DNA of 64,000 bases from Magnetococcales bacterium (GCA_015232395.1 JADFZT010000020.1:338-64337); one strand, 5' to 3'. Numbered from the stretch's first letter, positions 348 to 23,684 are shown. Numbers and translations: made by a program. The notes: generated from the letters alone by a model not told the origin.

Positions 348-1286
348 ATGAGCAGCGGGCAGCCTGGCTGGTATCTGGTCGGATATGACATCTCCTCGCC
401 GCGTCGTCTGCGAAAAATTCACCGGTCCCTGAAAAAACGGGGGCTGGCGCTGGCGCCCCAAACCCTCAACGCCGCCTGGAAAAGTCTCAAGGGGGATAAT
501 GCCGTCTGGATTCCCGGGCTCTCCCGGGCCGACATGGAAAAGAACATTGCGCTGCATTTGATCCAACTGGCCGATGAGTTGCGGACCGGCGCCTATCGAC
601 CCCATCCGACGCGCATGTTCCCGGTGGCCAAGGCCGACGGCGGAAAACGAATCATCTCCGCCTTGACGTTGCGGGACAAACTGGCTCAAAAAACCGTTCT
701 GTGGGCGTTGCGACCCTTGGGAGAGTCGCTTTTTCATTCCGACAGTTACGGTTACCGGCCTGGTCGGTCGGTGGAAATGGCGGTCTCGAAGGCGCGCGAA
801 CATATCCTTTGCGGCCTGGAATGGTTGGTGGACGCCGACATCCGACAATTTTTCGACCGCATTCCCCATGGTCCGCTACGCAAGGTTCTCAAGCGGACAA
901 TCGATGATCGCGAAATGTTGAAATTGATCGACATGTGGTTGGATGTCGGCGCGCCGCGTACCGGTTTTTTGACCAAACGTCGGGGCGTTCCGCAGGGCGG
1001 CGTTCTTTCGCCATTTTTCTGTAACCTCTACCTGACCGGCTTTGATCAGCGGTTGGCGGCGGCCAATCTCCCCTTCGTCCGCTTCGCCGACGATTTTCTC
1101 GTTTTCGCCCCGACCCAAAGGGCGGCGGAGGCGGCACGGACATTCGTCGGCAAAGAACTGAACCGGTTGGATCTGGAACTGCATCCCGACAAGACCCGCG
1201 TGGTTCGCAGTGGTCCAGCCGTCCGATTTCTCGGTCGAAAAATGCCCCGCGCGCCAAAATATGACGCCCCGGATGGCCGCGGGTGA
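348..1286 (+). CDS. CRISPR-associated group-II-intron-like reverse transcriptase with Cas2-like N-terminal segment
   Basis: 312 aa. RT blocks are readable in order: KADGGKRIISALTLRDKLAQKTV (RT1-2), WLVDADIRQFFDRIPH (RT3), RGVPQGGVLSPFFCNLYL (RT4), FVRFADDFLVF (RT5 catalytic xADD box), LELHPDKTRVV (RT6), FLGRKM (RT7). The N-terminus WYLVGYDISSPRRLRKIHRSLKKRG resembles Cas2 beta1-alpha1. No thumb/X, Cas1 or endonuclease domain is seen. Confidence 0.85.
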   Translation: MSSGQPGWYLVGYDISSPRRLRKIHRSLKKRGLALAPQTLNAAWKSLKGDNAVWIPGLSRADMEKNIALHLIQLADELRTGAYRPHPTRMFPVAKADGGKRIISALTLRDKLAQKTVLWALRPLGESLFHSDSYGYRPGRSVEMAVSKAREHILCGLEWLVDADIRQFFDRIPHGPLRKVLKRTIDDREMLKLIDMWLDVGAPRTGFLTKRRGVPQGGVLSPFFCNLYLTGFDQRLAAANLPFVRFADDFLVFAPTQRAAEAARTFVGKELNRLDLELHPDKTRVVRSGPAVRFLGRKMPRAPKYDAPDGRG

Positions 1287-1507: not shown

Positions 1508-3863
1508 GTCCGGACCCCACCCTGATTTCGAAGGGATTGAGACCAAATTAGTATAAGCATAAAAACCCAGCTGTTTTTGTCCGGACCCCACCCTGATTTC
1601 GAAGGGATTGAGACTCATCTAAGGGAGGAAGTTTGTATGCATTGATAAACGTCCGGACCCCACCCTGATTTCGAAGGGATTGAGACCCCTCAGGAGAGGC
1701 TACAAAAACATGTTTCTCTAAGTCCGGACCCCACCCTGATTTCGAAGGGATTGAGACTCACTTGCTTGGTTTGTAGCCCTGGCAATGTAACGTCCGGACC
1801 CCACCCTGATTTCGAAGGGATTGAGACTTGCGATAGAAACCTATCTTGTGTTTCATTGTTTCTGTCCGGACCCCACCCTGATTTCGAAGGGATTGAGACC
1901 ATATCCTACTCCATCTTTATCCTCTGCTTTGTCCGGACCCCACCCTGATTTCGAAGGGATTGAGACTTTTGTGTTCGATGGTTACATTGCCGCCCTGATA
2001 GTCCGGACCCCACCCTGATTTCGAAGGGATTGAGACTTAGGTCAAGCTGGGCGTCAGGCTGTTTGCAACTGCGTCCGGACCCCACCCTGATTTCGAAGGG
2101 ATTGAGACATCATGAGTGCATCGGTGGAGCTTTGGGCGGCAGTGTCCGGACCCCACCCTGATTTCGAAGGGATTGAGACTTTTTCCTCCGCTCATAAAAA
2201 ATGCTTCTCCGAGTCCGGACCCCACCCTGATTTCGAAGGGATTGAGACATGTTGGGAATACGTGATATAATCCCCATTTTCCGTCCGGACCCCACCCTGA
2301 TTTCGAAGGGATTGAGACCGGACAATTTTGGAATGACGGCACTGGGATTAAATGTCCGGACCCCACCCTGATTTCGAAGGGATTGAGACAAAACATCAAC
2401 GCACTCTTTGTCGAAATGGCGATGTCCGGACCCCACCCTGATTTCGAAGGGATTGAGACCTTGCGGGGGGGTAGGCAGGAGACCAAGACCCGCCTGTCCG
2501 GACCCCACCCTGATTTCGAAGGGATTGAGACTTTTTGTATTCCTGCAACCTGCTCCCCCAGTTTTTGTCCGGACCCCACCCTGATTTCGAAGGGATTGAG
2601 ACACTGAAATCTTCCAGTTGTTTAACGATCAATTCAGTCCGGACCCCACCCTGATTTCGAAGGGATTGAGACTCTTAAAATAGGTTTATTTGTTTTTTCA
2701 TCCCAGTCCGGACCCCACCCTGATTTCGAAGGGATTGAGACTCCAGTTGACGGGCGGCACCGAAGGAACCACGTGTCCGGACCCCACCCTGATTTCGAAG
2801 GGATTGAGACCGTTCCCAGGCTGGGTGCTACGAAAAACGTCGCAACGTCCGGACCCCACCCTGATTTCGAAGGGATTGAGACGGTCGGATATACTACAAC
2901 CTTATCCAACGTTGCGTGTCCGGACCCCACCCTGATTTCGAAGGGATTGAGACTTGGGGAATCATAATGGCGAAGATAAAGACGAAGTCCGGACCCCACC
3001 CTGATTTCGAAGGGATTGAGACTCACCAACCGATCGATGGACATCTTGGCGTCGTCCGGACCCCACCCTGATTTCGAAGGGATTGAGACTTATAAAATTG
3101 AGATGCCTTTATTTCCTCCTCTTCGTCCGGACCCCACCCTGATTTCGAAGGGATTGAGACCCTTTGCTGATCGTCCCAATGTAATCACCGTCAGGTCCGG
3201 ACCCCACCCTGATTTCGAAGGGATTGAGACCGCCTTTTCATGAGTACGTAGACACCAAGCTTGGTCCGGACCCCACCCTGATTTCGAAGGGATTGAGACT
3301 GCTCAAAATCGATCCAAAGCACCCGCTCACCCTCGTCCGGACCCCACCCTGATTTCGAAGGGATTGAGACGCCAATAAACACAACGATATTCTTATTGAT
3401 CGTCTGTCCGGACCCCACCCTGATTTCGAAGGGATTGAGACTGCAGGTCTGGGGCATTCCATCCCCGGAATTCCGTCCGGACCCCACCCTGATTTCGAAG
3501 GGATTGAGACCTGGAAGAAGTAGGCCAGTTCAACATTGATGCTCATGTCCGGACCCCACCCTGATTTCGAAGGGATTGAGACTCACGAGCCAAGTTCCAA
3601 CCAACCAGTTCACCGGGTCCGGACCCCACCCTGATTTCGAAGGGATTGAGACGATGGGAAGGGATTTGAGGGTTCCCCGAACTGTATGGTCCGGACCCCA
3701 CCCTGATTTCGAAGGGATTGAGACCTTAAAATAAGATCACATTTTTCTTGGCAGATGTCCGGACCCCACCCTGATTTCGAAGGGATTGAGACAGCCTGAT
3801 GCCGGCGCAGTAGCGTTCCGCCGCGTCGTCCGGACCCCACCCTGATTTCGAAGGGATTGAGAC
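1508..3863 (+). CRISPR. CRISPR array, 34 repeats / 33 spacers, 36-nt repeat GTCCGGACCCCACCCTGATTTCGAAGGGATTGAGAC
   Basis: Repeat starts counted by eye: 1508, 1579, 1651, 1722, 1792, 1864, 1931, 2001, 2073, 2144, 2213, 2283, 2354, 2424, 2496, 2567, 2637, 2706, 2775, 2847, 2918, 2987, 3054, 3125, 3195, 3264, 3335, 3406, 3475, 3547, 3617, 3689, 3757, 3828. All copies look identical. Spacers are ~31-36 nt and all differ. The 3' ATTGAGAC matches the canonical 8-nt Cas6-type crRNA handle. Confidence 0.98.
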
Positions 3864-3878
3864 TGAAGGGCGCTGGAC

Positions 3879-4883
3879 ATGGCTGACATTGCCCATCCAC
3901 ACGACCGCTTTCTGAAGATCCTGCTCTCGAATCCTGTGACGGCGGGAACTCTCTTGCGGGAGCGTCTGCCCAAAGAGATAGCAGAATGCTTGTCGCTGGA
4001 GCCGCCCAGCTTGGTGGATGGGACTTTCATCGACGGTGAGTTTCGTCAGCATCTGACAGATCGGCTGTTCCGGGTGAAGACGGTGGCAGGTGGTGAGGCC
4101 TACGTATACGCGCTCATCGAACACAAAAGCCATCCGGACGACTGGATAGCATTGCAACTTCTGCGGTATATGGTCCGGATCTGGGAGCAGATGCGGGAGG
4201 AGACAGATAGTGGGGGGCGTCTGTCACCCATTGTGCCGCTATTGGTGTACCATGGGAGGCAGACTTGGCAGATCCCACCCCTGTTTTCTGCGTTAGTGGA
4301 TGCAGAGACTTCCTGGCAGAAGCATCTGCTGGATTTTAGGTTTTCGGTGGTGGATCTGGGACGAATCGATGATGCTGCACTTTCTAGGGATGATCGGCTG
4401 CGTGGTGGGTTCCTGGCCCTAAAATGTGTATTTAAAAAGGGATTGAGGCCTGAGACGGTTGCCGGAATCGGTAAAGTTTTGCAGGTTGATCAAGAGCTTG
4501 CCAAGCGAACCTTGCTCTATCTGATTCAAACCTATGAGGAGTTGGATATGGATAGCATTCAGGCGTTTTCGGATGAGGCTTTCCCTGGGAAGGCGGAAGA
4601 ATATAAATCCCTATTTGCCAGGGAGATGATCGCAAAAGGTCGCCTAGAGGGCCGACAGGAAGGCCGACAGGAAGGCCGACAGGAAGGCCGACAGGAAGGC
4701 GAGCAGATCGGCGAGCGGCGAGGTGAAACCAAAGTCCTTCGTCGCCTCCTCTATAAAAAATTTGGAAGCACTCCCCTACCCTCTTGGGTCGAGGACAAAC
4801 TTACTGCCGCCTCCTTGGGTGAAATCGAGGAGTGGTCTGATCGGATTTTGGACGCTCAATCCTTGGACGAGATCTTTGTGTAG
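3879..4883 (+). CDS. Rpn-family recombination-promoting nuclease / putative transposase (YhgA-like PD-(D/E)XK), copy 1
   Basis: 334 aa. HPHDRFLKILLS...GGEAYVYALIEHKSHPDDWIALQLLRYMVRIW...IVPLLVYHG matches the RpnA/YhgA N-terminal nuclease domain pattern. The C-terminus has GRQEG repeats and a LPSWVEDKL...IEEWSDRILDAQSLDEIFV tail. A close paralog lies at 34382-35323. Confidence 0.8.
   Translation: MADIAHPHDRFLKILLSNPVTAGTLLRERLPKEIAECLSLEPPSLVDGTFIDGEFRQHLTDRLFRVKTVAGGEAYVYALIEHKSHPDDWIALQLLRYMVRIWEQMREETDSGGRLSPIVPLLVYHGRQTWQIPPLFSALVDAETSWQKHLLDFRFSVVDLGRIDDAALSRDDRLRGGFLALKCVFKKGLRPETVAGIGKVLQVDQELAKRTLLYLIQTYEELDMDSIQAFSDEAFPGKAEEYKSLFAREMIAKGRLEGRQEGRQEGRQEGRQEGEQIGERRGETKVLRRLLYKKFGSTPLPSWVEDKLTAASLGEIEEWSDRILDAQSLDEIFV
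4650..4697 (+). repeat. In-frame 12-bp tandem repeat (GGCCGACAGGAA x4) inside Rpn copy 1
   Basis: Four perfect head-to-tail units encode (GRQE)x4. Rpn copy 2 has only two related units (GGACGACAGGAA x2) at the same place. Confidence 0.9.
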
Positions 4884-5073
4884 TAATTTCGACTTCACCT
4901 CGGGTACCAAGGCGCAATCGGAAAATGGCCAAAACCTCGTGACTGACAAAATTTACAAGTTGTTGATTTTATTGGGTCTGAGTTTGAACCGGGTTCGTTC
5001 CGCATACCGAGCGTAACCAAAACTTTCTCTGTTTCCGTTTTTTGATATACACAAAAAAACGGAGATTGTTCGA

Positions 5074-5106
5074 ACCGGGTTCTTCCCGGTGCACCATTTC
5101 TTTTTT
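5074..5106 (+). terminator. Possible weak Rho-independent terminator downstream of Rpn copy 1
   Basis: ACCGGG-TTCTT-CCCGGT forms a 6-bp stem. It is followed, after 8 nt, by TTTCTTTTTT. The stem is short and the T-run is displaced. Confidence 0.3.
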
Positions 5107-5317
5107 CAGAGATATTCTCAGGCCGCCCACCCCCAAATGATGCGGTTTTTTTTACGCCAAAATTCCCCAATATTTTCAATGGTTACGGGCATACCCCCCT
5201 ACCCTGCCCCACCAACCTCGTGTCGACCCTCCAACAAAAAATCCCCCATTTTCTCTCTTCTGGCCCAAACTCTCTAAAACCTCGTGTCGATGGATAATCA
5301 AATACTTACGGCAATTT

Positions 5318-5358
5318 GTCCGGACACCGAGTTGGGAATGCGAGTGGGTGACCGAGAC
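5318..5358 (+). repeat. Candidate degenerate CRISPR repeat relic
   Basis: GTCCGGACaccgagttgggaatgCGAgtGGGtgaccGAGAC shares the first 8 nt (GTCCGGAC), an internal CGA..GGG and the terminal GAGAC with the array repeat. A second 3'-end-like piece, GGGTTGAGAC, lies at 5443-5452. Confidence 0.3.
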
Positions 5359-5491
5359 GAACCGGGTTCAAACTTTTATTGAAGAAACGTTCTGGAATCC
5401 CTCCCATGGTTGGTGGGATCGGCTGTAGGTGGATGATGTCCTGGGTTGAGACTTGGCTCGTAATAGGATATGGATAATTATTGGTGGCTCC

Positions 5492-8188
5492 ATGAGGGAG
5501 CACGAAAAATTTCTGGAAACCCAAATTACATTCATGTCAGGCATGGCCAAACGCCACAAACGAAAGAAACGTACCCGCTCGGCAACGCCCGGACAGCTTT
5601 TTCAGAAGGGCAAGGATTTGCTGGCAGCCGGACAATTTCGTCAGGCCATTGAAAATCTCAAATCCCTGAACAAACAGGAACCGGGTGGGCAAGGTTGCGA
5701 GCTTCTGATAACGGCCTATTGGGGGCGTGCCAAGGAGTTGTTTGATAAGGGATTGTTTCGAGAGGCGGCGGTGACATTGGAACAGGCTGACCGTCTGAAT
5801 GGCGCAAGGATCGATACGTCGCTCTTGCTCTCTGCTTGGTGTAATGCCGGGCTTCATGTCAAGGCAGCGCGTCTGTGGGGGGAAAAGAATACGGATACCC
5901 CAGAATTCTCCCACACCCCGGTGGCCGAACTGTTGGCCTGCTTGGCGGTGGTGGATGAAGAAATAGCCAATGCCTTGGGAACGGATCACCCAGTTGGACG
6001 TCATCTGATCCATGCCAGACAGGCTATACAAGCATTGATATTGGATCGACAGCAAGAGGCCCGGGAGGCCACCAAACAGATTCCTGTGCGTTCTTCCCTA
6101 CGGTCTCTGCGTCTGCTCCTGCTTGGAATTTTGGCAACCCGGAGTAATCCCGAATCGGCCATGGGGATCCTGGAAAGAATTCCGGTGGACTCCCCGTTAT
6201 CCCCCATCGCGCGTGTCCTGATCCCCCTTGCCCAGGGTAAACAACCTCAACCGGATTCGGAGGGGGACTCTGAAGGATCCGCCTACAAGATGGCCTTGTT
6301 TCTCGAAGGGGTGGAAAAACCAGCCCAGGAGCTGCTAGGGCAGATTGAACGGTCTCGATCGCGGCCCGATAGGTTGTTCTCAATATTGTTGAACGACAGG
6401 TGGGCCAACTTAATCCCTGAGCAGATTGGACGACAAATTTGCGGTAGCCTGCTGGACCAACATCCCAGAGGGTTATCGAAATATAATAAAAAATTCGGTT
6501 TATTGCCGGCTTGGCGTCGGCACCGCATGGCCGCCCTTGAGGAGGAACGGAAAGGCTATTTGGACACCGCTCTGGATCAGTGGCAGCTCTGCGTGGGACG
6601 CTTAGAAGCGGAAGATGAGGATCTGCCAGAAGCCGAAAAAGGTCCTGTCCGGGCCGCCCTTTTTCGCCACATGGGCGACCTGGCAAATAAAGTCAGTCAG
6701 CTGGATGAAAAGGACCATTGGGCCGATTCCTGGTCTGAACCGATTGCGGAGCAGCGTTTTTCTGAAATCAAATATTTGGAAAGGAGCCTGGAGTCTGACC
6801 CTTCCGACCGCCAGGTTTATCTGCGGTTAATTCACCTCCATGAAAAAAAAGGGAATGCCAAACAGCGCCGCCAAGCCGTGCAACGTGCGGTGAAACACTT
6901 CCCTGAAGATCCCGAGGTACTGGAGGCGGCGATGAACGAAGCCTTCGACGGTGGTGCCTTCAAAAAAGCCGTAAAACTGGCTGGTCAAATCCTTGAGCGC
7001 AATCCAATCAACAATCCGGTGCGCCGTCAGGTGGTGAAGGGCCACCTGATGCATGCCCGGAAAAAGATTAAATCCGGACGCCAGGATTTAGCTGAAAAGG
7101 AACTCAAACTTGCCGAAACGGTAGAACGCCCCCAGATCCGCGATGGTTCAGTTCAAATTTGCCGAGGGGTTATGGCGTTGATGGCAGGAGACAAACGCCA
7201 AGCCGACATCCATATGAAACAGGCTCGCCAAGAGGCCAATCATGCATGTGTAGCGGATTTGATGGCCCTGATGGAGGCCGAACGGATAATCGTGTCCCAG
7301 TCCCTGTTTGGTGCCTTAAAGAAAAAGCTCACTGCAAGCCTGAAAGACACTTCACCGGAACCTGGGTTGCTATTGGATTTGATAGAACGCATAGAAGCGA
7401 GCGGGCGGGAACCATCCTTGAATCCAAAAGCGTGGATACCGGCACTCTCCACCTGGTTAAACAAATGCGCCCGTCTGCCCCTTCCGGTTGATCAACGCCG
7501 TTTGGTCTGCCACTTTCTAGCCGATCATGAAGGGTTCAAGCCACTTGGCGCTTTTGCTCGTGAAGGGATAAAAAAATGGCCTGGAGATCCCTCGTTTCTG
7601 TTCTTCCAGTTGTTTGCGAAATATGAAGGGGATGAATACCGGGTGCCGTATCGGGATCTGAACCGTTTGGACGATGCCATGATGGAAGCAGGTTCGACGC
7701 TGGATCATCGTACCCAGGATCGCATCGGGCATTTCATGTATAACTCCGGTCCCCCCATGCCCTTTGGCTTGCCTGAAATACCTGGAGGAATACCGTTTGA
7801 TTACGAAGAACATCTTGATAACGAAAAATTCCCTATCTTCCCTGAATTTTTTGATCAGCTGGAAGAAAGTCTTGAAGGAGCCAAAAGTGACCCTGAAGAA
7901 GCCATCCAGGCCTTTTTCTCTCTGAAGGCTCTGCAGATATTGGCTGAGTTGGCTCCCCAGGATCGGGGCTTGACGCTGGCAGAGATCAAGGCACACCTCT
8001 ATCGGGAGCTTGTCCCCAGCTTTCCTCTGGGTCCGACTGAAGCCAAACGGTTGATCGATCAATTTATGGAAAACACCAGTTTCGATGAGCCCAACCCGCC
8101 AGTCATTCCACCAGTGCCGCGAAAGCCCCGTAAACCGAAAAAGACCCTGCACAATCCCAGACAGTTGGAATTTGATTTCGATGATTGA
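5492..8188 (+). CDS. Large helical-repeat (TPR-like) protein, first gene of accessory Hsp70 module
   Basis: The open frame runs 5453-8188. Possible starts are TTG 5453 and ATG 5492, 5534 or 5543. It has a basic N-terminus (KRHKRKKRTRS) and TPR-like helical hairpins (e.g. AGQFRQAIENLKSL, KGLFREAAVTLEQADRL, LERSLESDPSDRQVYLRLIHLHEKKGNAKQ). The tail is basic-proline then acidic (PRKPRKPKK...LEFDFDD). Its stop overlaps the next start (ATGATTGA at 8181-8188). Confidence 0.55.
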   Translation: MREHEKFLETQITFMSGMAKRHKRKKRTRSATPGQLFQKGKDLLAAGQFRQAIENLKSLNKQEPGGQGCELLITAYWGRAKELFDKGLFREAAVTLEQADRLNGARIDTSLLLSAWCNAGLHVKAARLWGEKNTDTPEFSHTPVAELLACLAVVDEEIANALGTDHPVGRHLIHARQAIQALILDRQQEAREATKQIPVRSSLRSLRLLLLGILATRSNPESAMGILERIPVDSPLSPIARVLIPLAQGKQPQPDSEGDSEGSAYKMALFLEGVEKPAQELLGQIERSRSRPDRLFSILLNDRWANLIPEQIGRQICGSLLDQHPRGLSKYNKKFGLLPAWRRHRMAALEEERKGYLDTALDQWQLCVGRLEAEDEDLPEAEKGPVRAALFRHMGDLANKVSQLDEKDHWADSWSEPIAEQRFSEIKYLERSLESDPSDRQVYLRLIHLHEKKGNAKQRRQAVQRAVKHFPEDPEVLEAAMNEAFDGGAFKKAVKLAGQILERNPINNPVRRQVVKGHLMHARKKIKSGRQDLAEKELKLAETVERPQIRDGSVQICRGVMALMAGDKRQADIHMKQARQEANHACVADLMALMEAERIIVSQSLFGALKKKLTASLKDTSPEPGLLLDLIERIEASGREPSLNPKAWIPALSTWLNKCARLPLPVDQRRLVCHFLADHEGFKPLGAFAREGIKKWPGDPSFLFFQLFAKYEGDEYRVPYRDLNRLDDAMMEAGSTLDHRTQDRIGHFMYNSGPPMPFGLPEIPGGIPFDYEEHLDNEKFPIFPEFFDQLEESLEGAKSDPEEAIQAFFSLKALQILAELAPQDRGLTLAEIKAHLYRELVPSFPLGPTEAKRLIDQFMENTSFDEPNPPVIPPVPRKPRKPKKTLHNPRQLEFDFDD

Positions 8189-8501
8189 TCCCTATCAAAT
8201 TCTCCAGGTTCCGGCCAATACCGACGACGAAGAGGTTCGCCAAGCCTACTTGGCCCAGTTGCGGCTTTACCCGCCAGAGCACCACCCTGAACGATTCCGG
8301 CAAATCCGCGAGGCTTTCGAGCTGCTGGCCAGTGAACGCAACCGGCGTGATTTTTCCCTGTTCCAGACAGCCAGCCCTGACTTGCATCCCCTGGTTCAAC
8401 ACCTGCTGAAGCAGAAGAGCAACCCGGAACCCATGACTGCCGAGGTTTTTTCCAACCATTTTGGAACCGTGTTGAAACAACACCGCTTAAAACGGGAGTG
8501 A
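8181..8501 (+). CDS. J-domain-like protein (non-canonical, no HPD)
   Basis: 106 aa. DPYQILQVPANTDDEEVRQAYLAQLRLYPPEHHPERFRQIREAFELLASERNRRDF aligns with J-domain helices I-III (DYYxILGV...AYrkLAlkYHPDk...FkeInEAYevLsD). The HPD position reads PPE, with a shifted HPE nearby. Confidence 0.75.
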   Translation: MIDPYQILQVPANTDDEEVRQAYLAQLRLYPPEHHPERFRQIREAFELLASERNRRDFSLFQTASPDLHPLVQHLLKQKSNPEPMTAEVFSNHFGTVLKQHRLKRE

Positions 8502-8504
8502 TCC

Positions 8505-9170
8505 TTGGACGATGCCGACAAACAGCTCCTAGTAGAGCGTTTCCAATCCTATCTGGACCAACTGCCCGAAGAAGAATCCACTTTGAATGACGTCTCCGGA
8601 CAGGCTGATCTGGCCAATGTGTACATGGAGATGGCTGGACTGCGCAATGAGGTGGCCCGTGAGGCCCGCCAGGTAAAGGGGGCTTTGGATAAATTCGGAG
8701 AACTTTTCAACACTGTCACCGAAAATCAATCCACTCTGGCGCGCCAGACCCGGGAGATCCACCAAGCCCGTGGCGAAGGCCCCCGGGAGGCGCAACACCA
8801 TCTGCTCCTCCAAATGCTGGACTTTAGGGACCGGTTTGCCGAAAGCCTCAACACCCTCGATGGGTATGCGCTCCCGTGGCGGGTCCGGAGTTTTGGAGGT
8901 AAGGCCCATGCGGCTTGGCTGACAGGGCTGGTTCAAGGCCAGCGGATGTTGTTAAAACGGCTGGACAGAATTCTGGATGCCCAGCGTGTGCAACGTCTGG
9001 AAACCCTGCACCGCCCCTTTGATCCAGAGCGAATGCGGGCAATGGGTACATCATGGGATCCAGATCATCCACCGGGGGTGGTGATTGCCGAAGAGCGTCC
9101 TGGCTACCTGTTGGCTGGCCAAGTCCTACGGCTTTCAGAGGTGACCGTCAACCGGCAAGGGGAAGACTGA
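8505..9170 (+). CDS. GrpE-like nucleotide exchange factor
   Basis: 221 aa from TTG 8505, with GGGAG ~9 nt upstream. It has a coiled-coil N-terminal half. The C-terminal FDPERMRAMG...VVIAEERPGYLLAGQVLRLSEVTV resembles the GrpE beta-domain (FDPnxHeAv...v.v.qkGY.l.grvlRpA.V.V). Confidence 0.65.
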   Translation: MDDADKQLLVERFQSYLDQLPEEESTLNDVSGQADLANVYMEMAGLRNEVAREARQVKGALDKFGELFNTVTENQSTLARQTREIHQARGEGPREAQHHLLLQMLDFRDRFAESLNTLDGYALPWRVRSFGGKAHAAWLTGLVQGQRMLLKRLDRILDAQRVQRLETLHRPFDPERMRAMGTSWDPDHPPGVVIAEERPGYLLAGQVLRLSEVTVNRQGED

Positions 9171-9172
9171 TC

Positions 9173-10951
9173 GTGAATGATATTATTATTGGCATCGACC
9201 TGGGTACTACCAACTCCGAGGTGGCGGTATTTGAAAACGGCCAGCCGCGCCTGATTGGCGACTCCGGGGGCGATCCCATCCTCCCCTCTTTCGTGGGGCT
9301 GTCCGAAGACGGGGTACTGCTGGTGGGACAGAGTGCCAGCAACCAGTATGCGGCTGCCCCTGAGCGCAGTGTCAAGTCAGTCAAACGGCTCATGGGACAG
9401 GATACCCGGATCGATCTGGGTGGAACCAACTATGCTCCCCAGGAAATTTCAGCGATCATCCTCAAAAGGCTCAAGGAGATGGCCGAATCCGACCTGGGAC
9501 AACCGGTCAACCGAGCCGTCATCACCGTACCGGCCTACTTTTCGGATGCCCAGCGGCAGGCTACTCGCGAGGCTGGGACCATTGCCGGATTGGATGTGGT
9601 TCGGATGATCAATGAGCCCACTGCCGCCGCCCTGGCCTATGAGGCCGGGCATGAAGGAATGCGTGACATTCTGGTTTACGACCTGGGGGGTGGGACCTTC
9701 GATGTCTCGATTGTGCGTATGGAACAGGACGTGGTGGAGGTGATTGCAAGTCACGGCGACAATCACCTGGGGGGGGATGATTTTGACCAACTCATCACCA
9801 GCCACCTGCTGGAGCAACTCGAAACCACCCATGGGGTGACGCTTTCTCCAGAAAGTCCCGCTCATGCCCGACTGCTGCGTGCCTCCGAAGCTGCCAAACG
9901 GGTACTGTCGGAATATCCTTTTGTCAACATCGAAGAGGAATTCATCACCGAAAAGGATGGGGTACCGGTTCATCTGAGCCTGGAATTGTCTCGGGATGAT
10001 TATGAGGAAATGATCCAGGAACTGGTGGAACGCACCCTGGAGTCGGTACATGCTACCCTGGATGACGCCAAACTGACCCCGGATGCCATCCAGGAAATTC
10101 TACTCGTGGGCGGTTCAACCCGCACGCCACTGGTGAGGCGGCGACTGGAGGAGATTTTTCATCGTTCGCCCCGGGGGGAGATCCATCCGGATTTGTGCGT
10201 GGCCCTGGGGGCGGCTATCCAGGGGGGAATTGTCAAAGGCGAAGCCGCCAGTGCCGTGCTGGTGGATGTAACCCCCTACACCTTTGGCACCAGCGCCCTG
10301 GGGTTTTTGGATGGCATTGAGACCCCTTTCGTCTACGTTCCCATCATCCACCGCAACACGCCGATTCCGGTCAGCCGCGGCCAAGTGTTTTATACCGTGC
10401 AGGACGATCAGAAGGTGGTGGATGTAAAGGTCTATCAGGGCGAAAATCCGGATGCCTCGCACAACATTCTGATTGGATCTTTTCGTATCGAAGGATTATC
10501 CAAAGCACCAGCCAACAATCCCATCGTCATGACGTTCGATCTGGATCTCAACGGAGTTCTACATGCCTCGGCCCGAGAGAAGATCAGCGGACTGGAGCGC
10601 AGCATTACCATTGACAACGCCATGACCCACTTTGAAGCCGAAGAGATGGACCAGGCCCGTTCCCGGGTGGAAGCCTTGTTCGAAAACGAGGAGGTAATCG
10701 ACAGCACACCCCAGGAGAACATCCCCCAAGGCCAAGAGGATGTCACCCCTGCCCAGCGGCAGCAACATACCGAAGCCCGCGCTCTGGTGGAGAAGGCTGA
10801 ACGAATGCTTGAAGAGGCCAGTGACGAGGATCGCGACGACATGATCAATTTGATCGAAGAGATCCTTCAGGCTCTGGATAAGGAAAATTTCACGGCGTTG
10901 GCAGAAGCCCGGGAGCAGTTGGCGGACATCCTCTACTACATGGAGACCTGA
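9173..10951 (+). CDS. Hsp70-family ATPase (DnaK/HscC-like paralog)
   Basis: Starts at GTG 9173, 3 nt after the GrpE-like stop. Motifs: IGIDLGTTNSEVAV (phosphate-1), DLGGGTFDVSIV (phosphate-2), LVGGSTRTPLVRRRLEE (adenosine) and a substrate-binding domain (VLVDVTPYTFGTSALG), plus a helical lid. Confidence 0.9.
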   Translation: MNDIIIGIDLGTTNSEVAVFENGQPRLIGDSGGDPILPSFVGLSEDGVLLVGQSASNQYAAAPERSVKSVKRLMGQDTRIDLGGTNYAPQEISAIILKRLKEMAESDLGQPVNRAVITVPAYFSDAQRQATREAGTIAGLDVVRMINEPTAAALAYEAGHEGMRDILVYDLGGGTFDVSIVRMEQDVVEVIASHGDNHLGGDDFDQLITSHLLEQLETTHGVTLSPESPAHARLLRASEAAKRVLSEYPFVNIEEEFITEKDGVPVHLSLELSRDDYEEMIQELVERTLESVHATLDDAKLTPDAIQEILLVGGSTRTPLVRRRLEEIFHRSPRGEIHPDLCVALGAAIQGGIVKGEAASAVLVDVTPYTFGTSALGFLDGIETPFVYVPIIHRNTPIPVSRGQVFYTVQDDQKVVDVKVYQGENPDASHNILIGSFRIEGLSKAPANNPIVMTFDLDLNGVLHASAREKISGLERSITIDNAMTHFEAEEMDQARSRVEALFENEEVIDSTPQENIPQGQEDVTPAQRQQHTEARALVEKAERMLEEASDEDRDDMINLIEEILQALDKENFTALAEAREQLADILYYMET

Positions 10952-10953
10952 GG

Positions 10954-11199
10954 GTGGCTGCGCGTTGCGGCCTGTGTCGGGGCTCAGTGGACGACCAGAC
11001 CGCCATCTGTCGGCGTTGTGGAGCGGATCTGGGGCTTGTTTGGCAGGCCAAATCGACTGCCAATGCCCTCGTCACTTCCGCCATTGGCACCTTGGCCCAG
11101 GGTGATTTGGATAAAGCTCGCCATCTCACCAGCCAAGCAGCCCTATATCATAACGACTTTTTTATCCGTCACCTGAATAGCTTCCTGAACCATTCCTGA
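10954..11199 (+). CDS. Small zinc-ribbon protein, last gene of Hsp70 module
   Basis: 81 aa from GTG 10954, 3 nt after the Hsp70 stop. CGLCRG...CRRCG forms CxxC-N11-CxxC, followed by a helical segment. Confidence 0.45.
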   Translation: MAARCGLCRGSVDDQTAICRRCGADLGLVWQAKSTANALVTSAIGTLAQGDLDKARHLTSQAALYHNDFFIRHLNSFLNHS

Positions 11200-11523
11200 C
11201 AAACTATTCCTCACTATTGTCCTCCCCTACGCCTTCCAAAAAAAGGTCTGCTGCTCCTCCCACTCCACTGGAAACGGCTTTTTCAGTTCCGAAATGGTGA
11301 TCCCCTCCGGCTGACGGCCATCGAGGATGGTATTGCTATCGGTTTCAATATGTCAGATAATTTTGCCAACTGGTACCAAACGGAAATTCACCGTAGCTCG
11401 AACATTCAAAGGTAAGCGCTCAATAAAGGGCAGGGTTCCACTATTCATGGCGATCTTTCATTCTGGCTGAAAACCAGACGAATGGAGGCCGGAATGGAAG
11501 AAACCAGGCATGATGATCTTTCC

Positions 11524-12985
11524 CAGGACTTTCCCCAAAAATTTTCACTCAAAATCAAACGCCAGTTGCCCATAGTCCTGTAATTCCGCAACTGGGCCTC
11601 ACCTGGGAGATCGAGCGCAAACTTCCCGGATTCCGTCGGCCAGGGCATAGAAGCGAAAATCAGGCACGCCGAACACCCGCTTTGATGCTTTCGTCAAATG
11701 CGTGGCCAGGATATCCAACTTCAGCCTCGTCCCCAGGATTACAGTCGTGAAAAAGGCTACGGCGTTGACCAGAACCACCATGTTTTGCAGACGCTCATAG
11801 GTCAAAACTCGAATATCTTCGAGGCTATAGCTTTGTTTAACAAAACGGATCGCCTCCTCAATGCGCCATCTTGAAAAATAGGCGTTTACCACCCATGCCA
11901 CATCCTTATGCCGCCGACGAAGGGGAGTATTCGTCAGCAACATCAGTGGCTCTTTACCCAGCCCCTGCACCACCACCATCCACAGGTGGACTTCGGGACG
12001 TTCAGGCAAACGGACGGGCCGAAAGCCATATTCCAGATCCACCCTGACCTCTTTGCCATGCTCTTCACGCACGATCCATGATGAGTAGCGTAGCGGGCAG
12101 TCCCTGGCCAAATCCGAGGTCGCACGGTGACGCTGGCCCCAAATCAAATGGCGGTTTCCTTTCAGGCGAATGATGAAAGATCTCGAAGCATCCACCATGG
12201 GCTCAAGCAGCGCACCACGATCACCACCACGGTCCATTATCCAAACGCCTCGATTTTCACAGGCCGCAGACACTTGCTCCACTGCCATCAGGATTTCCGC
12301 ATTTTCGCTCAAAAAACCCGGAGCCTCCTGAGAGTATAGGTGGGAGTGGAGCGGAATAATGGCGTTATCCCCATTCTCGACGCCCACCACCTGGCACAAC
12401 CAATAACCAGAGGCAATCTTTCCCGCGCTGCCATCCCTGACTTTTGCCAGAAATTCCATCTTCTTGGCGTAAGGTTTGGTCAGATCAGATGGATCCAGGA
12501 TCAGCAAGGTTCGATCCTGGATCCTGCCGGCTCCTTCCCGTAACACTGAAGCGCCCACCTCTTGGCCTATGGTTTCACGAGCTAGATTACGGGATAACCG
12601 GGTTTCGGTCTTGGACAGAGGTATCCGCTCTTCCAGCGCACGTCCAATCTCAGTCAGACGAACGCTGCCACGGGCCGCAACGCCATACATCACCTCATCC
12701 ACCAACCGCCGTGCCACTTTTCCTAAACCGACTGAAAATCTCCCCGAAAAATGGGGCATCTGGGAGCGGATTTTGGTCGCAGTCTGCGGTATCATGAGAT
12801 GGGGCCTCCTTTTGGTGAGTTGGTGTTCCTGGCTTCGCAACCGGAATCCTACCCCACCGGGGAGCGCCCCTCATCCTGCAAAAAGTCTCTCCAAAAATGC
12901 CCATTTCACTTCCAAACCAACATTTTCTCCCATTGAATCATCGTGTTGCGCGCATCAAACCCTGTTTTTTTTGGGGAAAGTCCTG
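11524..12985 (-). mobile_element. IS4-family insertion sequence (intact, ~1.46 kb)
   Basis: It has perfect 18-bp terminal inverted repeats, CAGGACTTTCCCCAAAAA at 11524-11541 and its reverse complement at 12968-12985. These flank a single DDE transposase ORF. Confidence 0.85.
11599..12795 (-). CDS. IS4-family DDE transposase
   Basis: The frame is open from TTG 12840, and the first ATG is at 12795. The C-terminal YFSRWRIEEAIRFVKQ is the Y-x2-R-x3-E-x6-K signature of IS4-type transposases. Acidic triad candidates are LILDPSDL and WIMDRGGD. Confidence 0.85.
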   Translation of the reverse strand: MIPQTATKIRSQMPHFSGRFSVGLGKVARRLVDEVMYGVAARGSVRLTEIGRALEERIPLSKTETRLSRNLARETIGQEVGASVLREGAGRIQDRTLLILDPSDLTKPYAKKMEFLAKVRDGSAGKIASGYWLCQVVGVENGDNAIIPLHSHLYSQEAPGFLSENAEILMAVEQVSAACENRGVWIMDRGGDRGALLEPMVDASRSFIIRLKGNRHLIWGQRHRATSDLARDCPLRYSSWIVREEHGKEVRVDLEYGFRPVRLPERPEVHLWMVVVQGLGKEPLMLLTNTPLRRRHKDVAWVVNAYFSRWRIEEAIRFVKQSYSLEDIRVLTYERLQNMVVLVNAVAFFTTVILGTRLKLDILATHLTKASKRVFGVPDFRFYALADGIREVCARSPR

Positions 12986-16785: not shown

Positions 16786-19700
16786 ATGCCCCCTCGTAAA
16801 ACAGGCGCAACGCGCAAAGCCACCGCAAAACGGAAAACCGCCTCCGACCTGGACGCCTCAAAAAAGCCAAGCGCGGGCGGGGAAAAGTCGACGAAGAAAA
16901 GTTCGGCCGTGAAAGATAAAATTTTCGTGGTGGGCATTGGCGCGTCAGCGGGCGGCTTGGAGGCCCTGCGCCCATTGGTGGCCAAACTTCCCGCCAATGC
17001 GCACATGGGCTATGTGGTCGTCCAACATATGGCCCCTCAATACCGGAGCATGATGGTGGAGCTTCTGGCGCGGGAGACTAAAATTCCCGTCATGGAGATC
17101 AAGGACAAAACGCCCATTTCCCCTGGCGTCATCCACATCACGCCTCCCAACCACGATGCGGACATCAAGGATGGCGTCCTTTTTCTCAAACCCCCCACCA
17201 ACCCGGTGGGCCCCAAACCCTCCATCGATAACTTCTTCTCCGCCCTTGCGGAAGATCAGGGTGAAAAAGCCATCGGTGTCATCCTCTCTGGTACAGGCTC
17301 CGACGGCGCGCTTGGCATGCGCACCATCAAGGCGCATGGCGGATTTACTCTGGTCCAGGACCCGGAAACGGCCAAATACAACGGAATGCCTTTGGCGGCC
17401 ATTGAAACCAATCTGATCGACTTGATCCTCTCCCCGGACAAGATAGGCATCAATCTACCTGATATTGTCCAGACTCCCGGCAAGCTTCTTGAGCTGATGG
17501 ATGATGAAAAGTCCGGCTTGTCGGGTCTTGATGAAATTTTCGCCCTGGTCCGTAAACGTACGGACATCGATTTTTCGAAATACAAACAGACCACCCTATG
17601 CCGCCGTATCGAACGCCGCATCAACGCCACGGGAACCAGGGATCTTCCCAGCTACGTCCTGCACATGCGGGACAACCCCGCCGAGGCTGAAAGCCTGGCC
17701 AAGGACGTTCTTATCTCAGTTACGGGTTTTTTCAGAGATAAAGAAGCCTTCCTGGTCATGAAAGAGGTTCTTCAGGAGATCGTCCATAACAAGGAACCTG
17801 GAGATGAAATACGCTTTTGGGTTCCCGGTTGCGCCACCGGTGAGGAGGCCTACTCCATCGCCATTCTGCTTTCGGAACTTCTGGGCATCAAAGTGGGAAG
17901 TTACAAGGTGCAGATATTCGCCACCGATATCGACCTGGAGGCGTTGGAAGCGGCGCGGAAGGGCATTTATCTGGAAGCGGCGCTGAAAGAGGCGCCGCCA
18001 CAATACATCGACCGTTATTTTACCAAGAAGGGCGACAAGTTTCACGTCTCCAAGGATTTGCGCGAGTTGGTCGTTTTTGCCCGCCAGGATCTCGCCAAGG
18101 ACCCACCGTTTGTCCGCGTGGATCTCATCACCTGCCGCAACGTTCTGATCTATTTCAATCAGGAACTCCAGGATCGGGTTTTTTCATCCTTCCATTTTGC
18201 TTTGGCTTCCTCCGGTTACATGTTTCTTGGCAAATCGGAAGCCCTGGGTCAGAGCGCGGACCTTTTTTCGACCTCCAATGCCAAATACCGTATCTACCAG
18301 AAAAAGGTCGGCGTCGGTGATCGATTCGGTCGCGCCCCGCTTTCGGATCGTCCCAAGCCCATCTGGCCGGGGTCGCACAAATCGCCGGATCAGAAAAAAA
18401 TCAGCGTCGAAGAGGCCATGCGCACCACCATCATGCGCATTTACGCCCCGAAAAGCCTGATGGTGGGAGATGACGGTTCGGTCTATCAGATCAATGGCGA
18501 TGTGACCGGATATATGATTTTGGGCTCCGGCAAGGGGGATCTCAACGTCACGCGCATGTTGATTCCGGAATTGCGTGGCGAATTCTGGGCTCTGTTCTCT
18601 CAAGTCAAGAAAACCGGCGACTCGGCCATCGGCTCCATCAAGCCGATCGTTTTCGGCGGAATGCGCAAAGGCGTGCGCATGGGCATTCACCCCGCCACGA
18701 GGGTTTCACAAATCAGCAGTCTTTATCTCATTGGCTTTGAAGAGTTCGACATCCCGGAGAAAAACGATTCTACCGAAGCGAGCGATGGCGTCAATTTAGA
18801 CACGACCAGGGTTCCTGAACTGGAGCAGGAGTTGGTGGCCACCAAGGAGCATTTGCAAACCGTCATCGAGGAGTTGGAAACCTCCAACGAGGAACTGCAA
18901 GCCTTGAATGAGGAGTTGCAGGCTTCCAATGAGGAGATGCAATCCACCAATGAGGAGTTGGAAACTGCCAATGAAGAGTTGCAATCCACCAACGAGGAAC
19001 TGACCACCGTCAACGAGGAGTTGCAGACCCGGACCTCGGAGTTGATGGTCGCCAACAGCGACCTTGAAAACATGCAGAAAAACGTCGGTTACTCCCTCAT
19101 CATCGTCGACCCCAAATTGCGAGTAAAACGGTTTTCGCCGGCCGCCGTAAAATATTTCGGGTTGGCGGCGGAAGATATCGGAGAGGTTATCACTGCCGCC
19201 CCTTCCCATCTGGATATCAAATATCTGAAACAAAAATTGGCGAAGGTCATCGCCTCCGGCAAGGAACACCAGGAGGAAATCCTGACCGACACGCTCTCCT
19301 TGTGGTTCAGAATCGTGCCCTACTACTCTTTGGAGAACAAAATCGAGGGGGCGGTCATCGTCATCATCGATCAATCTGAAATCTACAACATTCGCCAGGA
19401 GTTGGCCCACAGCGAACGCCTGCAACGCCTGATATCCGACTCCATGCCCATGGGCGTGGCGTTGATTGGGCCGGATCAGCGGGTCGTCAATGTCAATCAC
19501 AGGCTTCTGGAGTGGTTTGGCAGCGGTAAGGATATTCTCGGAAAACGCCTTTTTAACGCTTTTGGACGAAAAATCTACGATCACTTGAAACCAGGCGTTG
19601 CCAAAGCTTCCGAGGGCGAATCAACCAGCATTGAGTTGGAACACTCCCCCACAGGGAAGGATATCCAGACGTTTCAACTGCTCATGGTTCCCCACCTGGA

Positions 19701-20145
19701 TGAAAAAAGGCGGTCTACCGGCGGTTTTATACTGATTTTTGAAAATGTGACCGCACTGACGACGGCTCGAAAGGAGCTTCAGCTCTCTCGGGAAAGATAC
19801 CGCACTCTGGCGGAGTCCGGCATCCAGGGCGTATTGATCCACCGAAAAGGCGTGCCTGTTTACTGCAACCACGCCTTCGCCCGTTTTTTCGGTTATACGG
19901 ACCCGGAACAGGTGGTGGACATGAAAGACGTCAACAACCTTCTGCCCACCAAAGAGCGCCGAAAGGGGATCGCTAAATCCAAACTGTTCGGTTCAGGACA
20001 TGCGCCCGCCGTTCATGAGGCCCGGGGGCTGGACAAGGATGGCAAGGCCGTTTCCTTGATGGCCTCGTCCCGGGTGGTCAATTGGGAGGGACAATTGGCG
20101 ATTCAGACGGCTGTCGTGCGCTCGGAACCTGAATCCGGAGCTTGA
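16786..20145 (+). CDS. CheB methylesterase-CheR methyltransferase-coiled coil-PAS fusion protein, paralog 1
   Basis: CheB-like VVGIGASAGGLEAL...GTGSDGALG. CheR-like FFRDKEAF...[20 protein letters not shown]...CRNVLIYF. A heptad NEEL repeat follows ([31 protein letters not shown]...), then PAS-like modules. GGAGG lies 6 nt upstream of the ATG. Confidence 0.9.
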   Translation: MPPRKTGATRKATAKRKTASDLDASKKPSAGGEKSTKKSSAVKDKIFVVGIGASAGGLEALRPLVAKLPANAHMGYVVVQHMAPQYRSMMVELLARETKIPVMEIKDKTPISPGVIHITPPNHDADIKDGVLFLKPPTNPVGPKPSIDNFFSALAEDQGEKAIGVILSGTGSDGALGMRTIKAHGGFTLVQDPETAKYNGMPLAAIETNLIDLILSPDKIGINLPDIVQTPGKLLELMDDEKSGLSGLDEIFALVRKRTDIDFSKYKQTTLCRRIERRINATGTRDLPSYVLHMRDNPAEAESLAKDVLISVTGFFRDKEAFLVMKEVLQEIVHNKEPGDEIRFWVPGCATGEEAYSIAILLSELLGIKVGSYKVQIFATDIDLEALEAARKGIYLEAALKEAPPQYIDRYFTKKGDKFHVSKDLRELVVFARQDLAKDPPFVRVDLITCRNVLIYFNQELQDRVFSSFHFALASSGYMFLGKSEALGQSADLFSTSNAKYRIYQKKVGVGDRFGRAPLSDRPKPIWPGSHKSPDQKKISVEEAMRTTIMRIYAPKSLMVGDDGSVYQINGDVTGYMILGSGKGDLNVTRMLIPELRGEFWALFSQVKKTGDSAIGSIKPIVFGGMRKGVRMGIHPATRVSQISSLYLIGFEEFDIPEKNDSTEASDGVNLDTTRVPELEQELVATKEHLQTVIEELETSNEELQALNEELQASNEEMQSTNEELETANEELQSTNEELTTVNEELQTRTSELMVANSDLENMQKNVGYSLIIVDPKLRVKRFSPAAVKYFGLAAEDIGEVITAAPSHLDIKYLKQKLAKVIASGKEHQEEILTDTLSLWFRIVPYYSLENKIEGAVIVIIDQSEIYNIRQELAHSERLQRLISDSMPMGVALIGPDQRVVNVNHRLLEWFGSGKDILGKRLFNAFGRKIYDHLKPGVAKASEGESTSIELEHSPTGKDIQTFQLLMVPHLDEKRRSTGGFILIFENVTALTTARKELQLSRERYRTLAESGIQGVLIHRKGVPVYCNHAFARFFGYTDPEQVVDMKDVNNLLPTKERRKGIAKSKLFGSGHAPAVHEARGLDKDGKAVSLMASSRVVNWEGQLAIQTAVVRSEPESGA

Positions 20146-20161
20146 ATACGATATATTGATA

Positions 20162-20328
20162 ATCCTAAATCCGGCAGTTGGGCGTGTGTGGCTGGTGCAG
20201 GATATTGGTTCGCATAGTGAATTGGGAGAAATCGCCGTCACCTGATTGGTCACAAGATTTTCTCCCGATTTGCTTGGTGGATCAAGAGGCTGGGGCATGT
20301 GCGTACGCCCAACTGCCGGATTTAGGAT
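20162..20328. mobile_element. MITE-like element, copy 1 (167 bp, perfect 24-bp TIR)
   Basis: ATCCTAAATCCGGCAGTTGGGCGT at 20162-20185 has its exact reverse complement at 20305-20328. The interior is collinear with, and in inverted orientation to, a second copy at ~41309-41472. Confidence 0.75.
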
Positions 20329-20375
20329 AATGTACCAGATGGACTTTTCCATCCACGAATGCCCTGGAGGCTCCA

Positions 20376-23300: not shown

Positions 23301-23684
23301 AATCTCCGGGAAGCTATAAAGGATCTGAAAACGACGCGGGAACGCTACCGAACTTTGGCGGAGGGATCACTCCAAGGCCTCGTCATCCATCAGGAGGGCC
23401 GGTCTATCTACGCCAATCACGACGTGGCGAAAATTTTTGGATACGCCGAACCGGAGGAGATCCTCAAGCTTGATGGCGTTGGCGCGCTCTTCAGCGACGC
23501 CGTGGGCAAGGGCGGTTCCACGCGGAATTATCCGTTTCCGACCGGGCACGCGCCGAAAAAGGTCCGGGCGATGGGACGAAAAAGGGATGGAAAAAACGTT
23601 CCCCTGCTGGTTTCATCCCAGATCGTGAAATGGGATGGAAGACTGGCGATCAAGACCGCCGTGGTGGATCTGTCGAATGAATGA
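20376..23684 (+). CDS. CheB-CheR-coiled coil-PAS fusion protein, paralog 2
   Basis: It has the same architecture and motifs as 16786-20145 ([38 protein letters not shown] heptad block). Confidence 0.9.

Follow-up and report, generated by a model that had tools for sequence, protein, structure and literature searches.

A five-gene operon encoding a probable second Hsp70 system with a large TPR protein and a J-protein that lacks the HPD histidine, from a Magnetococcales bacterium

A stretch of 64,000 nt from a Magnetococcales bacterium (GCA_015232395.1, JADFZT010000020.1:338-64337), referred to over its full length as the window, carries five consecutive plus-strand open reading frames (ORFs) at 5543-11199. 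The ORF listing gives, in this order, a large tetratricopeptide repeat (TPR) protein (named BIG here), a J-protein, a GrpE-type protein, an Hsp70 and a small zinc-ribbon protein (Table 1). The five proteins probably form a dedicated Hsp70 machine, and its only J-protein lacks the histidine of the HPD motif. The genes are tightly packed, as a sequence-only reading of the window had described with gaps of 0-3 nt or overlaps. The ATG of the J-protein gene at 8181 lies before the TGA stop of the BIG gene (8186-8188), giving an overlap of 8 nt (ATGATTGA), and the TTG start of the GrpE gene at 8505, the GTG start of the Hsp70 gene at 9173 and the GTG start of the zinc-ribbon gene at 10954 follow the preceding stops (8501, 9170 and 10951) after 3, 2 and 2 nt, respectively. 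The TTG and GTG starts are consistent with the N termini of the homologues, which read "..IIGIDLGTTNS" in the Hsp70 and "MERCPxC" in the small protein. The start of the BIG gene is uncertain, with candidates at 5492, at 5534, which is used by the database gene call (884 aa), and at 5543. The last, with the N terminus MAKRHKRKK, agrees best with the family alignments. The median junctions over 47 loci, in gene order, are -1, 10, -4 and 2 nt, showing that the tight coupling belongs to the whole family and extends beyond this window.

The related loci were collected by a scan of one genome per GTDB species with the large-protein alignment, which gave 71 loci, and all were scanned with hidden Markov models (HMMs) built from five seed operons. 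A locus was regarded as testable when at least 3.4 kb of sequence followed the large gene. The J-protein, GrpE, Hsp70 and small genes follow the BIG gene in the same order in 42 of the 45 testable loci, far above chance, so the five genes are co-conserved elsewhere, as the accessory interpretation of the module had presupposed. The full set is also present in all six directly inspected contexts, and in three further loci (L078-L080) the five genes stand in the same order. Two of the three exceptions (L048 and L076) carry visible deletions. In these decayed modules (L048:10247-13619 and L076:5926-7509) the N-terminal part of the TPR protein is joined in frame to mid-Hsp70, the J-protein and GrpE genes are gone, and the zinc-ribbon gene is still found downstream. 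The hosts include Magnetococcales, Methylococcales, Beggiatoa/Thiomargarita, Competibacteraceae, Acetobacteraceae and Desulfobulbia, and many Hsp70 homologues, with identities of 57-64%, come from Magnetococcales, Beggiatoa, Competibacteraceae, Sulfuricella and Desulfobulbaceae. Full five-gene sets were found at a greater distance in Kiritimatiellia (L082), Cysteiniphilum sp. 6C5 (L083) and GCA_030429565.1 (L084), and a planctomycetotal locus (L081) has a reduced set of large protein, J-protein and Hsp70. The family HMMs still match the J-protein, GrpE and zinc-ribbon proteins of the distant loci, as well as the large proteins of L083 and L084, indicating that the module is older and more widespread than Proteobacteria. 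Cultured hosts include Methylobacter luteus IMV-B-3098, Methylocaldum sp. GT1BB, Paracraurococcus lichenis LOR1-02 and Cysteiniphilum sp. 6C5. Neither the clustering of flanking ORFs nor the neighbour survey gave a conserved sixth gene; the candidates were an M16 peptidase, which is upstream within Competibacteraceae only, and a GTPase, which is confined to one locus. In two unrelated loci (L079:13320-16322 and L080:12056-15946, both minus strand), the module is directly followed by a gene for a large STAND-like ATPase on the opposite strand. These ATPases have an AAA_16 domain with TPRs or a BTAD-AAA_16 architecture, and they were not seen in the other loci.

Table 1. The five genes of the module and the neighbouring features, with positions counted from the first nucleotide of the window
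Feature	Position	Strand	Basis
BIG, ~881-aa all-alpha TPR superhelix	5543-8188	+	Pfam TPR_14/TPR_19, AlphaFold2 (AF2), Foldseek
J-domain protein, 106 aa, PPE at the HPD site, ~45-aa C-terminal tail	8181-8501	+	Pfam DnaJ
Divergent GrpE-type nucleotide exchange factor, 221 aa	8505-9170	+	Pfam GrpE
Full-length non-DnaK-clade Hsp70, 592 aa	9173-10951	+	Pfam HSP70, NCBIfam, AF2, neighbour-joining (NJ) tree
Zinc-ribbon (CxxC...CxRCGxDL) + TPR-like helical hairpin, 81 aa	10954-11199	+	Homologue alignment
Reverse transcriptase, 312 aa, preceding the CRISPR array	348-1286		PADLOC
CRISPR array, 34 identical 36-nt repeats GTCCGGACCCCACCCTGATTTCGAAGGGATTGAGAC	1508-3863		
YhgA/Rpn-like gene	3879-4883		
DDE transposase	11599-12840	-	

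The Hsp70 matches Pfam HSP70 (PF00012) with 501 bits and keeps the GIDLGTTNS, K70, NEPTAA and DLGGGTFD motifs. The AF2 model, built with 50 homologues, has a predicted local distance difference test score (pLDDT) of 86.8 and contains a complete nucleotide-binding domain (NBD), linker, beta part of the substrate-binding domain (SBD-beta) and four-helix lid. The catalytic motifs, hydrophobic linker, SBD-beta and helical lid of the Hsp70 superfamily are thus all present in the predicted structure, in agreement with the earlier observation of intact ATPase motifs and a substrate-binding domain. The equivalents of the J-docking residues Arg167, Asn170, Thr173 and Glu217 are kept as well, with the arginine present in 44 of 45 sequences. 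The protein scores below the NCBIfam DnaK equivalog cut-offs (PRK00290 and TIGR02350; 553.2 vs. 648 and 543.9 vs. 822.55), whereas the canonical DnaK of a related contig (L068), used as a control, reaches 1041.9 and 953.3 on the same two models. It is similarly below the HscA cut-offs (435.3 vs. 708.55 and 429.2 vs. 620). Alignments with the DnaK of L068 and with DnaK chains of E. coli showed that the ~24-residue NBD insert of proteobacterial DnaK is missing (query residue 77 corresponds to DnaK residue 100) and that there is no acidic disordered C-terminal tail; the chain ends in lid helix 573-591 (...LADILYYMET). The SBD-beta hairpin is longer and family-specific, with altered loops, and the interdomain linker reads AVLVDVTP vs. 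the canonical VLLLDVTP ([AST]VLVD vs. VLLLD for the family). An EEVD-like free tail for the BIG TPRs at the conserved L.D[IL]L[FY]Y[LM]E was considered and rejected, because the AF2 model places the C terminus inside this last lid helix with a pLDDT of ~93.

Homologues from an exhaustive HMMER search against 1.84 billion representatives were placed in an NJ distance tree. In this tree the module Hsp70s are monophyletic and roughly track taxonomy within families, and they fall into a larger clade of ~570-620-aa Hsp70s ending in a helix ...[DE]x[LI]L[FY]Y[LVM]E (LFYLE-type), apart from the canonical DnaKs. Members of this wider clade occur in Planctomycetota, Kiritimatiellia and Cysteiniphilum. 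The scores below the DnaK cut-offs and the separate clade confirm that the genes are not the housekeeping dnaK-dnaJ-grpE arrangement. Besides the module, the L068 contig has a canonical dnaK-grpE pair at 2178-4755 on the minus strand, 6-8 kb upstream of the module; its DnaK scores 1042 bits and its GrpE 230 bits, and both exceed the NCBIfam cut-offs. The module is therefore a second Hsp70 system alongside canonical DnaK in this relative. Surveys found dnaK in 98.9% of bacterial genomes (PMC11019930), and derived DnaK paralogues were encountered only together with a bona fide DnaK (PMC13580251).

The J-protein scores 39.8 bits with Pfam DnaJ (cut-off 27.8) over profile positions 1-62 of 63 and matches J-domains in the PDB with an E-value of 2e-6, which identifies the J-fold. 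The string YPPEHHPE, which the sequence-only reading had placed at the position of the HPD tripeptide, is present in the window protein. The PPE of this string aligns with the HPD of E. coli DnaJ in the family alignment and with that of human DNAJA3 in an independent phmmer alignment. The alternative that HHPE represents a shifted HPD or HPE was rejected: the family HMM and phmmer both place PPE at the HPD site, and the second His is not conserved, with RDAE, RAPE and RDRR in other members. The HPD site of 59 family J-proteins reads PPE (26), PPD (25), PAE (5) or SPD (3), never with His, and seven further loci, including distant phyla, have PPE, SPE or TPE. The loop is therefore [P/S/T]-[P/A]-[D/E] in 66 of 66 proteins, with the acidic residue in all 66, the central Pro in 61 and His in none. 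The claim that the J-protein has no HPD thus stands after proper alignment and holds for all 66 homologues. The equivalents of Tyr25 and Phe47, the basic helix II and the acidic third loop position are retained in the family. In the DnaJ-DnaK pair, D35 pairs with DnaK R167 and H33 contacts the linker residues L391/L392; in simulations, the H33A variant still binds, with the hydrolysis-competent state blocked, and replacement of HPD by AAA leaves stimulation partly intact in some Hsp70/J systems (PMC13012618). A large survey of J-domain proteins found HPE, at ~1%, as the sole notable natural variant of HPD (PMC10410713).

The GrpE-type protein matches Pfam GrpE with 63.9 bits (cut-off 25.8), so the module does have its own GrpE-like exchange factor, as had been proposed, and the gene keeps its position in 42 of 45 loci. 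Its best PDB match is G. kaustophilus GrpE (4ani). On the NCBIfam GrpE equivalogs the best score is 36 bits against cut-offs of at least 137, and by these profile scores the protein is GrpE-like in fold and family and is not an orthologue of the housekeeping GrpE. The small protein has weak Pfam matches to DZR_2 (double-zinc-ribbon, E 0.007) and TPR_MalT. Its four Cys (CxxC...CxxC) are conserved in all of the ~50 homologues, which share an invariant CxxC...CxRCGxDL followed by a helical hairpin with a TPR-like residue pattern, and in all of these loci the gene is directly 3' of the Hsp70 gene.

BIG has Pfam matches to TPR_14 and TPR_19, and its homologues in 54 loci show full-length identities of 21-30%. 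The AF2 model comprises 45 helices with a mean pLDDT of 72.5, strongest over residues 400-735. The top Foldseek matches, with E-values from 1e-7 to 1e-5, are Ctr9, the IFT-A protein TTC21B, Ski3, SPY/OGT, Naa15 and APC subunits; the TM-scores are low, as expected of flexible solenoids. The predicted structure thus identifies BIG as a long TPR-superhelix scaffold resembling Ctr9, Ski3 and IFT139. The N terminus is polybasic (MAKRHKRKKRTR), and the C terminus is a disordered tail with a basic stretch followed by LEFDFDD (window 8120-8185), so the helical-repeat protein with a basic start and an acidic EFDFDD end was correctly recognized in the sequence-only reading. In many lineages the tail closes with a run of basic residues and then (Q/N)(L/F)(D/E)LF, to which DD may be added, as in QLEFDFDD, QFDLF, QLDLF, NLFDD and KDLFDD. 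Acidic-hydrophobic tips such as …DDPDQFDLF, …DRQLDLF, …GNLFDD and …QLEFDFDD were seen, for example, in L019, L030, L032, L042, L052, L054 and L068. The tip resembles that of the bacterial single-stranded DNA-binding protein (…DDDIPF), which docks onto many partner proteins.

These features suggest that the module is probably a dedicated, self-contained, translationally coupled second Hsp70 machine, whose task would be to remodel a specific client or scaffold bound to the TPR protein. The TPR superhelix of BIG would serve as a scaffold or adaptor, which either holds a specific client or is itself the remodelled assembly. The J-protein would sit on BIG through its C-terminal tail, the two forming a split "TPR + J" co-chaperone, and would dock on the Hsp70 through helix II, Tyr25 and Phe47, with the acidic loop residue pairing with the Arg167 equivalent and the [P/S/T]-P-[D/E] loop also meeting the VLVD linker of the cognate Hsp70. 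Docking would trigger ATP hydrolysis, and the SBD would close on a defined segment of the BIG-bound client or of BIG's own tail, for which the disordered basic stretch with (Q/N)(L/F)(D/E)LF is the candidate. The private GrpE would then reset the cycle. The zinc-ribbon/TPR-hairpin protein would be a fifth stoichiometric subunit, probably capping or bridging the scaffold. His33 normally contacts the linker, and both are changed here; the replacement of His33 and the LLLD-to-VLVD change are thus proposed as a pair that would insulate the module from the housekeeping DnaK/DnaJ. The BIG-J complex, the identity of the client, the stimulation of the ATPase by the His-less loop and the insulation are all inferred. 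A bolder form of this proposal is rather doubtful. The [P/S/T]-P-[D/E] J-proteins would drive a co-evolved VLVD-linker Hsp70 in an orthogonal, ATP-driven circuit that assembles or disassembles the TPR scaffold, with the BIG tail as the handle, and the HPD rule would not be universal; auxilin-Hsc70 in clathrin uncoating would be a eukaryotic counterpart of such a scaffold-dedicated module.

Like the canonical DnaK-DnaJ-GrpE system, the module combines an Hsp70 ATPase of NBD-linker-SBD-lid architecture with a J-domain protein and an exchange factor of the GrpE type, and the catalytic residues and the Arg167/Asn170/Thr173 docking residues are shared. However, the module Hsp70 has a VLVD instead of an LLLD linker, a longer SBD hairpin and neither the NBD insert nor the acidic tail. 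Its J-partner lacks the G/F region, the zinc-finger and C-terminal client-binding domains and the HPD His, and the TPR scaffold and zinc-ribbon genes are added in the order BIG-J-GrpE-Hsp70-zinc-ribbon. DNAJC3/p58IPK and DNAJC7/TPR2 have a TPR array followed by an Hsp70-recruiting J-domain, an order that the overlapping BIG and J-protein genes mimic. In the module, however, the TPR and J parts are separate proteins, the TPR array, with ~45 helices, is much longer and the His is missing; no sequence relationship to DNAJC3 or DNAJC7 beyond generic TPR and J-domain similarity was detected. Both families are reported from eukaryotes only (PMC10410713). The GAP1-N2 GTPase-centric conflict systems also contain a non-housekeeping Hsp70 with its own GrpE linked to DnaJ-domain and TPR proteins (Kaur, Burroughs, Iyer, Aravind 2020; PMC7159879). 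These systems, found mainly in actinobacteria and firmicutes, are defined by GAP1, an FNIII-repeat protein and one or two TRAFAC GTPases that bear zinc ribbons at the N terminus (PMC7159879). GAP1, GTPase and FNIII are absent from the module proteins and are not conserved beside the module, a lone GTPase being upstream of it in L005 only.

The HscA-HscB, HscC-DjlB/DjlC and M. xanthus DnaK2/SglK + GrpE MXAN_6672 systems are similar in that a second Hsp70 with a dedicated co-chaperone serves a narrow task, and a variant loop, HPE, is already known in DjlB/DjlC. They differ in keeping the His (HPD or HPE) and in having no TPR scaffold or zinc-ribbon subunit. HscA and HscC are not known to depend on GrpE. 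The private GrpE and the His-less loop of the module argue against membership in the HscC-DjlB/DjlC systems (PMC10410713). No isc genes were found in the window or the related loci, and the module falls outside the HscA-HscB systems. Pam16/Tim16 and DNAJB13 also have a J-fold with a degenerate HPD loop. Pam16 acts paired with the HPD-bearing J-protein Pam18; in contrast, the module has no J-protein other than the His-less one, whose loop shows strong conservation as [P/S/T]-P-[D/E]. Full-text searches of the literature found no description of the five-gene operon, and the databases name the module Hsp70s only "Hsp70 family protein" or "molecular chaperone DnaK". Judged from the protein sequences, what is new relative to known machines of Hsp70, J-protein and nucleotide exchange factor is the universal loss of the HPD His, the co-varying linker and the two obligate extra subunits.

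A general-purpose back-up set, in which a DnaK paralogue and its partners add folding capacity and the TPR and zinc-ribbon proteins are dispensable accessories, would be in line with the correlation between DnaK duplication and proteome complexity (PMC11019930), with hosts that are mostly large-genome, cell-biologically complex bacteria and with M. xanthus DnaK2, which too has its own GrpE. The Hsp70 itself would suit this role, being of full length with all catalytic and allosteric residues. This explanation is unlikely, however, given a sole J-protein of ~100 aa that has neither a client-binding domain nor HPD, and an SBD that has altered loops and an extended hairpin specific to this family. 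In 42 of 45 loci, and in different phyla, the Hsp70 is accompanied by BIG and the zinc-ribbon protein, which points to obligate partners. In addition, a promoter and terminator scan of 4800-11700 gave counts not above those of shuffled sequence, with no sigma-32-type or other promoter assignable. If the J-like protein were instead a non-stimulating regulator or anchor that tethers the Hsp70, to be likened to the J-like Pam16/Tim16, the Hsp70 would be a slow holdase or would be activated by the client or BIG. The missing His in all 66 J-loops and the retention of the binding elements (helix II, Tyr25, Phe47 and the acidic loop residue) agree with such a role, as do the simulations in which H33A binds and blocks the transition to the hydrolysis-competent state (PMC13012618). 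Nevertheless, an anchor of this kind is improbable: the module contains no second, HPD-bearing J-protein to regulate, the loop is strongly constrained in its acidic residue (66 of 66) and central Pro (61 of 66), the retained private GrpE implies a running ATPase cycle, and the HPD-to-AAA change does not fully abolish stimulation in some systems (PMC13012618).

The position of the module between the CRISPR array with the Rpn-like gene and an insertion sequence (IS) element had suggested a possible conflict-related role. The module would then be a conflict or anti-phage system based on Hsp70: an invader protein would be sensed by the TPR protein, and an abortive or inhibitory response would be gated by the Hsp70 cycle. 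Besides the setting in the window, neighbouring HEPN and PD-(D/E)XK genes in L003, MazE/PIN in L005 and the STAND-like AAA_16 proteins in L079 and L080 point in this direction, and the distribution of the module is patchy with a variable genomic position. Moreover, STAND-type immunity often uses long TPR arrays as sensors, and Hsp70-GrpE sets with J- or TPR-fused proteins are known in the GAP1-N2 GTPase systems (PMC7159879). However, no nuclease, protease, pore or NADase effector domain was found in the five proteins with Pfam and NCBIfam. Searches against PADLOC-DB v2 gave no match for BIG, the J-protein, GrpE or the small protein, and one weak partial match for the Hsp70 (PDC-M61B, 18.6 bits, E 1.5e-4) over the ATPase fold. 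The neighbourhoods are mostly housekeeping and vary between lineages, with tricarboxylic acid cycle genes, the nusA-infB-pnp operon, bacA/truA, transketolase, mur/lpxC, ABC/RND transporters or polyketide synthase genes, and defence-like or mobile neighbours are found in a minority of the annotated contexts. Flank clustering and the 11 annotated contexts gave no recurrent neighbour beyond synteny within Competibacteraceae; among the 133 nearest-neighbour ORFs of 41 loci, each Pfam family is found at most three times and only roughly 8-10 ORFs match PADLOC at E<=1e-10. A defence-island context was rejected on the basis of these surveys. A tblastn search with BIG against 72,556 plasmids gave no match (the phage collection was not searched), the Hsp70 tree is broadly taxonomic within families, and the GTPase, GAP1 and FNIII components of the described Hsp70-containing systems are absent. 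The conflict-related role was therefore not borne out: a conflict system is very unlikely, a defence role of the module is unsupported, and the CRISPR/IS adjacency in the window is incidental. As a caution for annotation, such adjacency in one genome is no evidence of a defence role.

Several observations weigh against the preferred reading of the module as a dedicated client-remodelling machine. Substitutions of H33 abolish the function of the DnaJ J-domain, so the module J-protein may be non-stimulatory. The association of linker and J-loop is a single clade-level coincidence with no statistical power; as one clade-level event, it is suggestive only. The C-terminal motif of BIG is missing in Alphaproteobacteria and rearranged or reversed in Competibacteraceae. 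The BIG model is of medium confidence (pTM 0.44) and was built from a 5-sequence alignment, because wider word-index searches, whether started from the single sequence or from a 54-sequence profile, gave only 4 usable homologues. The patchy distribution, with positions that vary even within Magnetococcales, would also fit an accessory, horizontally moving element. Furthermore, the client and the interactions among BIG, the J-protein and the Hsp70 are hypothetical. The module nevertheless matters for the general view of the Hsp70 cycle. HPD is treated as the invariant trigger of this cycle, and here the only J-protein of a multi-phylum family never has the His. If the J-Hsp70 pair is active, it would show how the specificity and insulation of such pairs can be encoded and could offer an orthogonal chaperone pair for synthetic biology. 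With its obligatory ~850-aa TPR scaffold and its zinc-ribbon subunit, the module resembles what would be expected of a client-specific remodelling machine, a type so far known mainly from eukaryotes.

The setting of the module in the window, with the CRISPR array and the Rpn-like gene on one side and the IS element on the other, is as the sequence-only reading had described it (Table 1). The best PADLOC matches of the reverse transcriptase are a generic reverse transcriptase model and the reverse transcriptase part of RT-Cas1 (Cas1_IIIb); no Cas1 or effector genes are visible between the CRISPR/reverse transcriptase region and the edge of the window. An 80-aa ORF (1283-1525) extends into the first CRISPR repeat. 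Reverse transcriptase homologues lie less than 6 kb from the Hsp70 module in three more loci (L028:4478-5560, L029:605-1687 and L038:18326-19387), two of which are mutually close relatives, and this probably reflects a coincidence of mobile retroelements. An Rfam scan of the window gave no match. The 600-nt spacer between the Rpn-like gene and the module (4884-5490) contains dense short repeats, including an 18-nt inverted repeat (AGTTTGAACCGGGTTCGT) at 4981-4998 and 5357-5374, a palindrome (GAACCGGGTTC) with three occurrences and a perfect 13-nt direct repeat (AACCTCGTGTCGA) at 5214 and 5278. These repeats could be a remnant resembling a miniature inverted-repeat transposable element or operator sites for the operon.

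Elsewhere in the window, the minus-strand region 41473-48164 encodes a 956-aa ORF with no Pfam match, which has a 4-nt overlap with the start of a 1274-aa protein. The sole Pfam match of the latter is an MscS-type channel beta-domain. The 956-aa ORF contains 4.7 copies of a 141-nt tandem repeat, 94% identical, at 42380-43039, and a long acidic low-complexity stretch with a periodicity of 12-42 nt at 43812-44258. Two adjacent paralogous CheB-CheR-PAS fusion proteins of ~1100 aa are encoded at 16786-23684. A repeat with a period of 21 nt in each of them (18842-19029 and 22420-22562) points to a heptad coiled-coil segment. The window is also unusually rich in PAS, histidine-kinase and GGDEF-EAL signalling genes.

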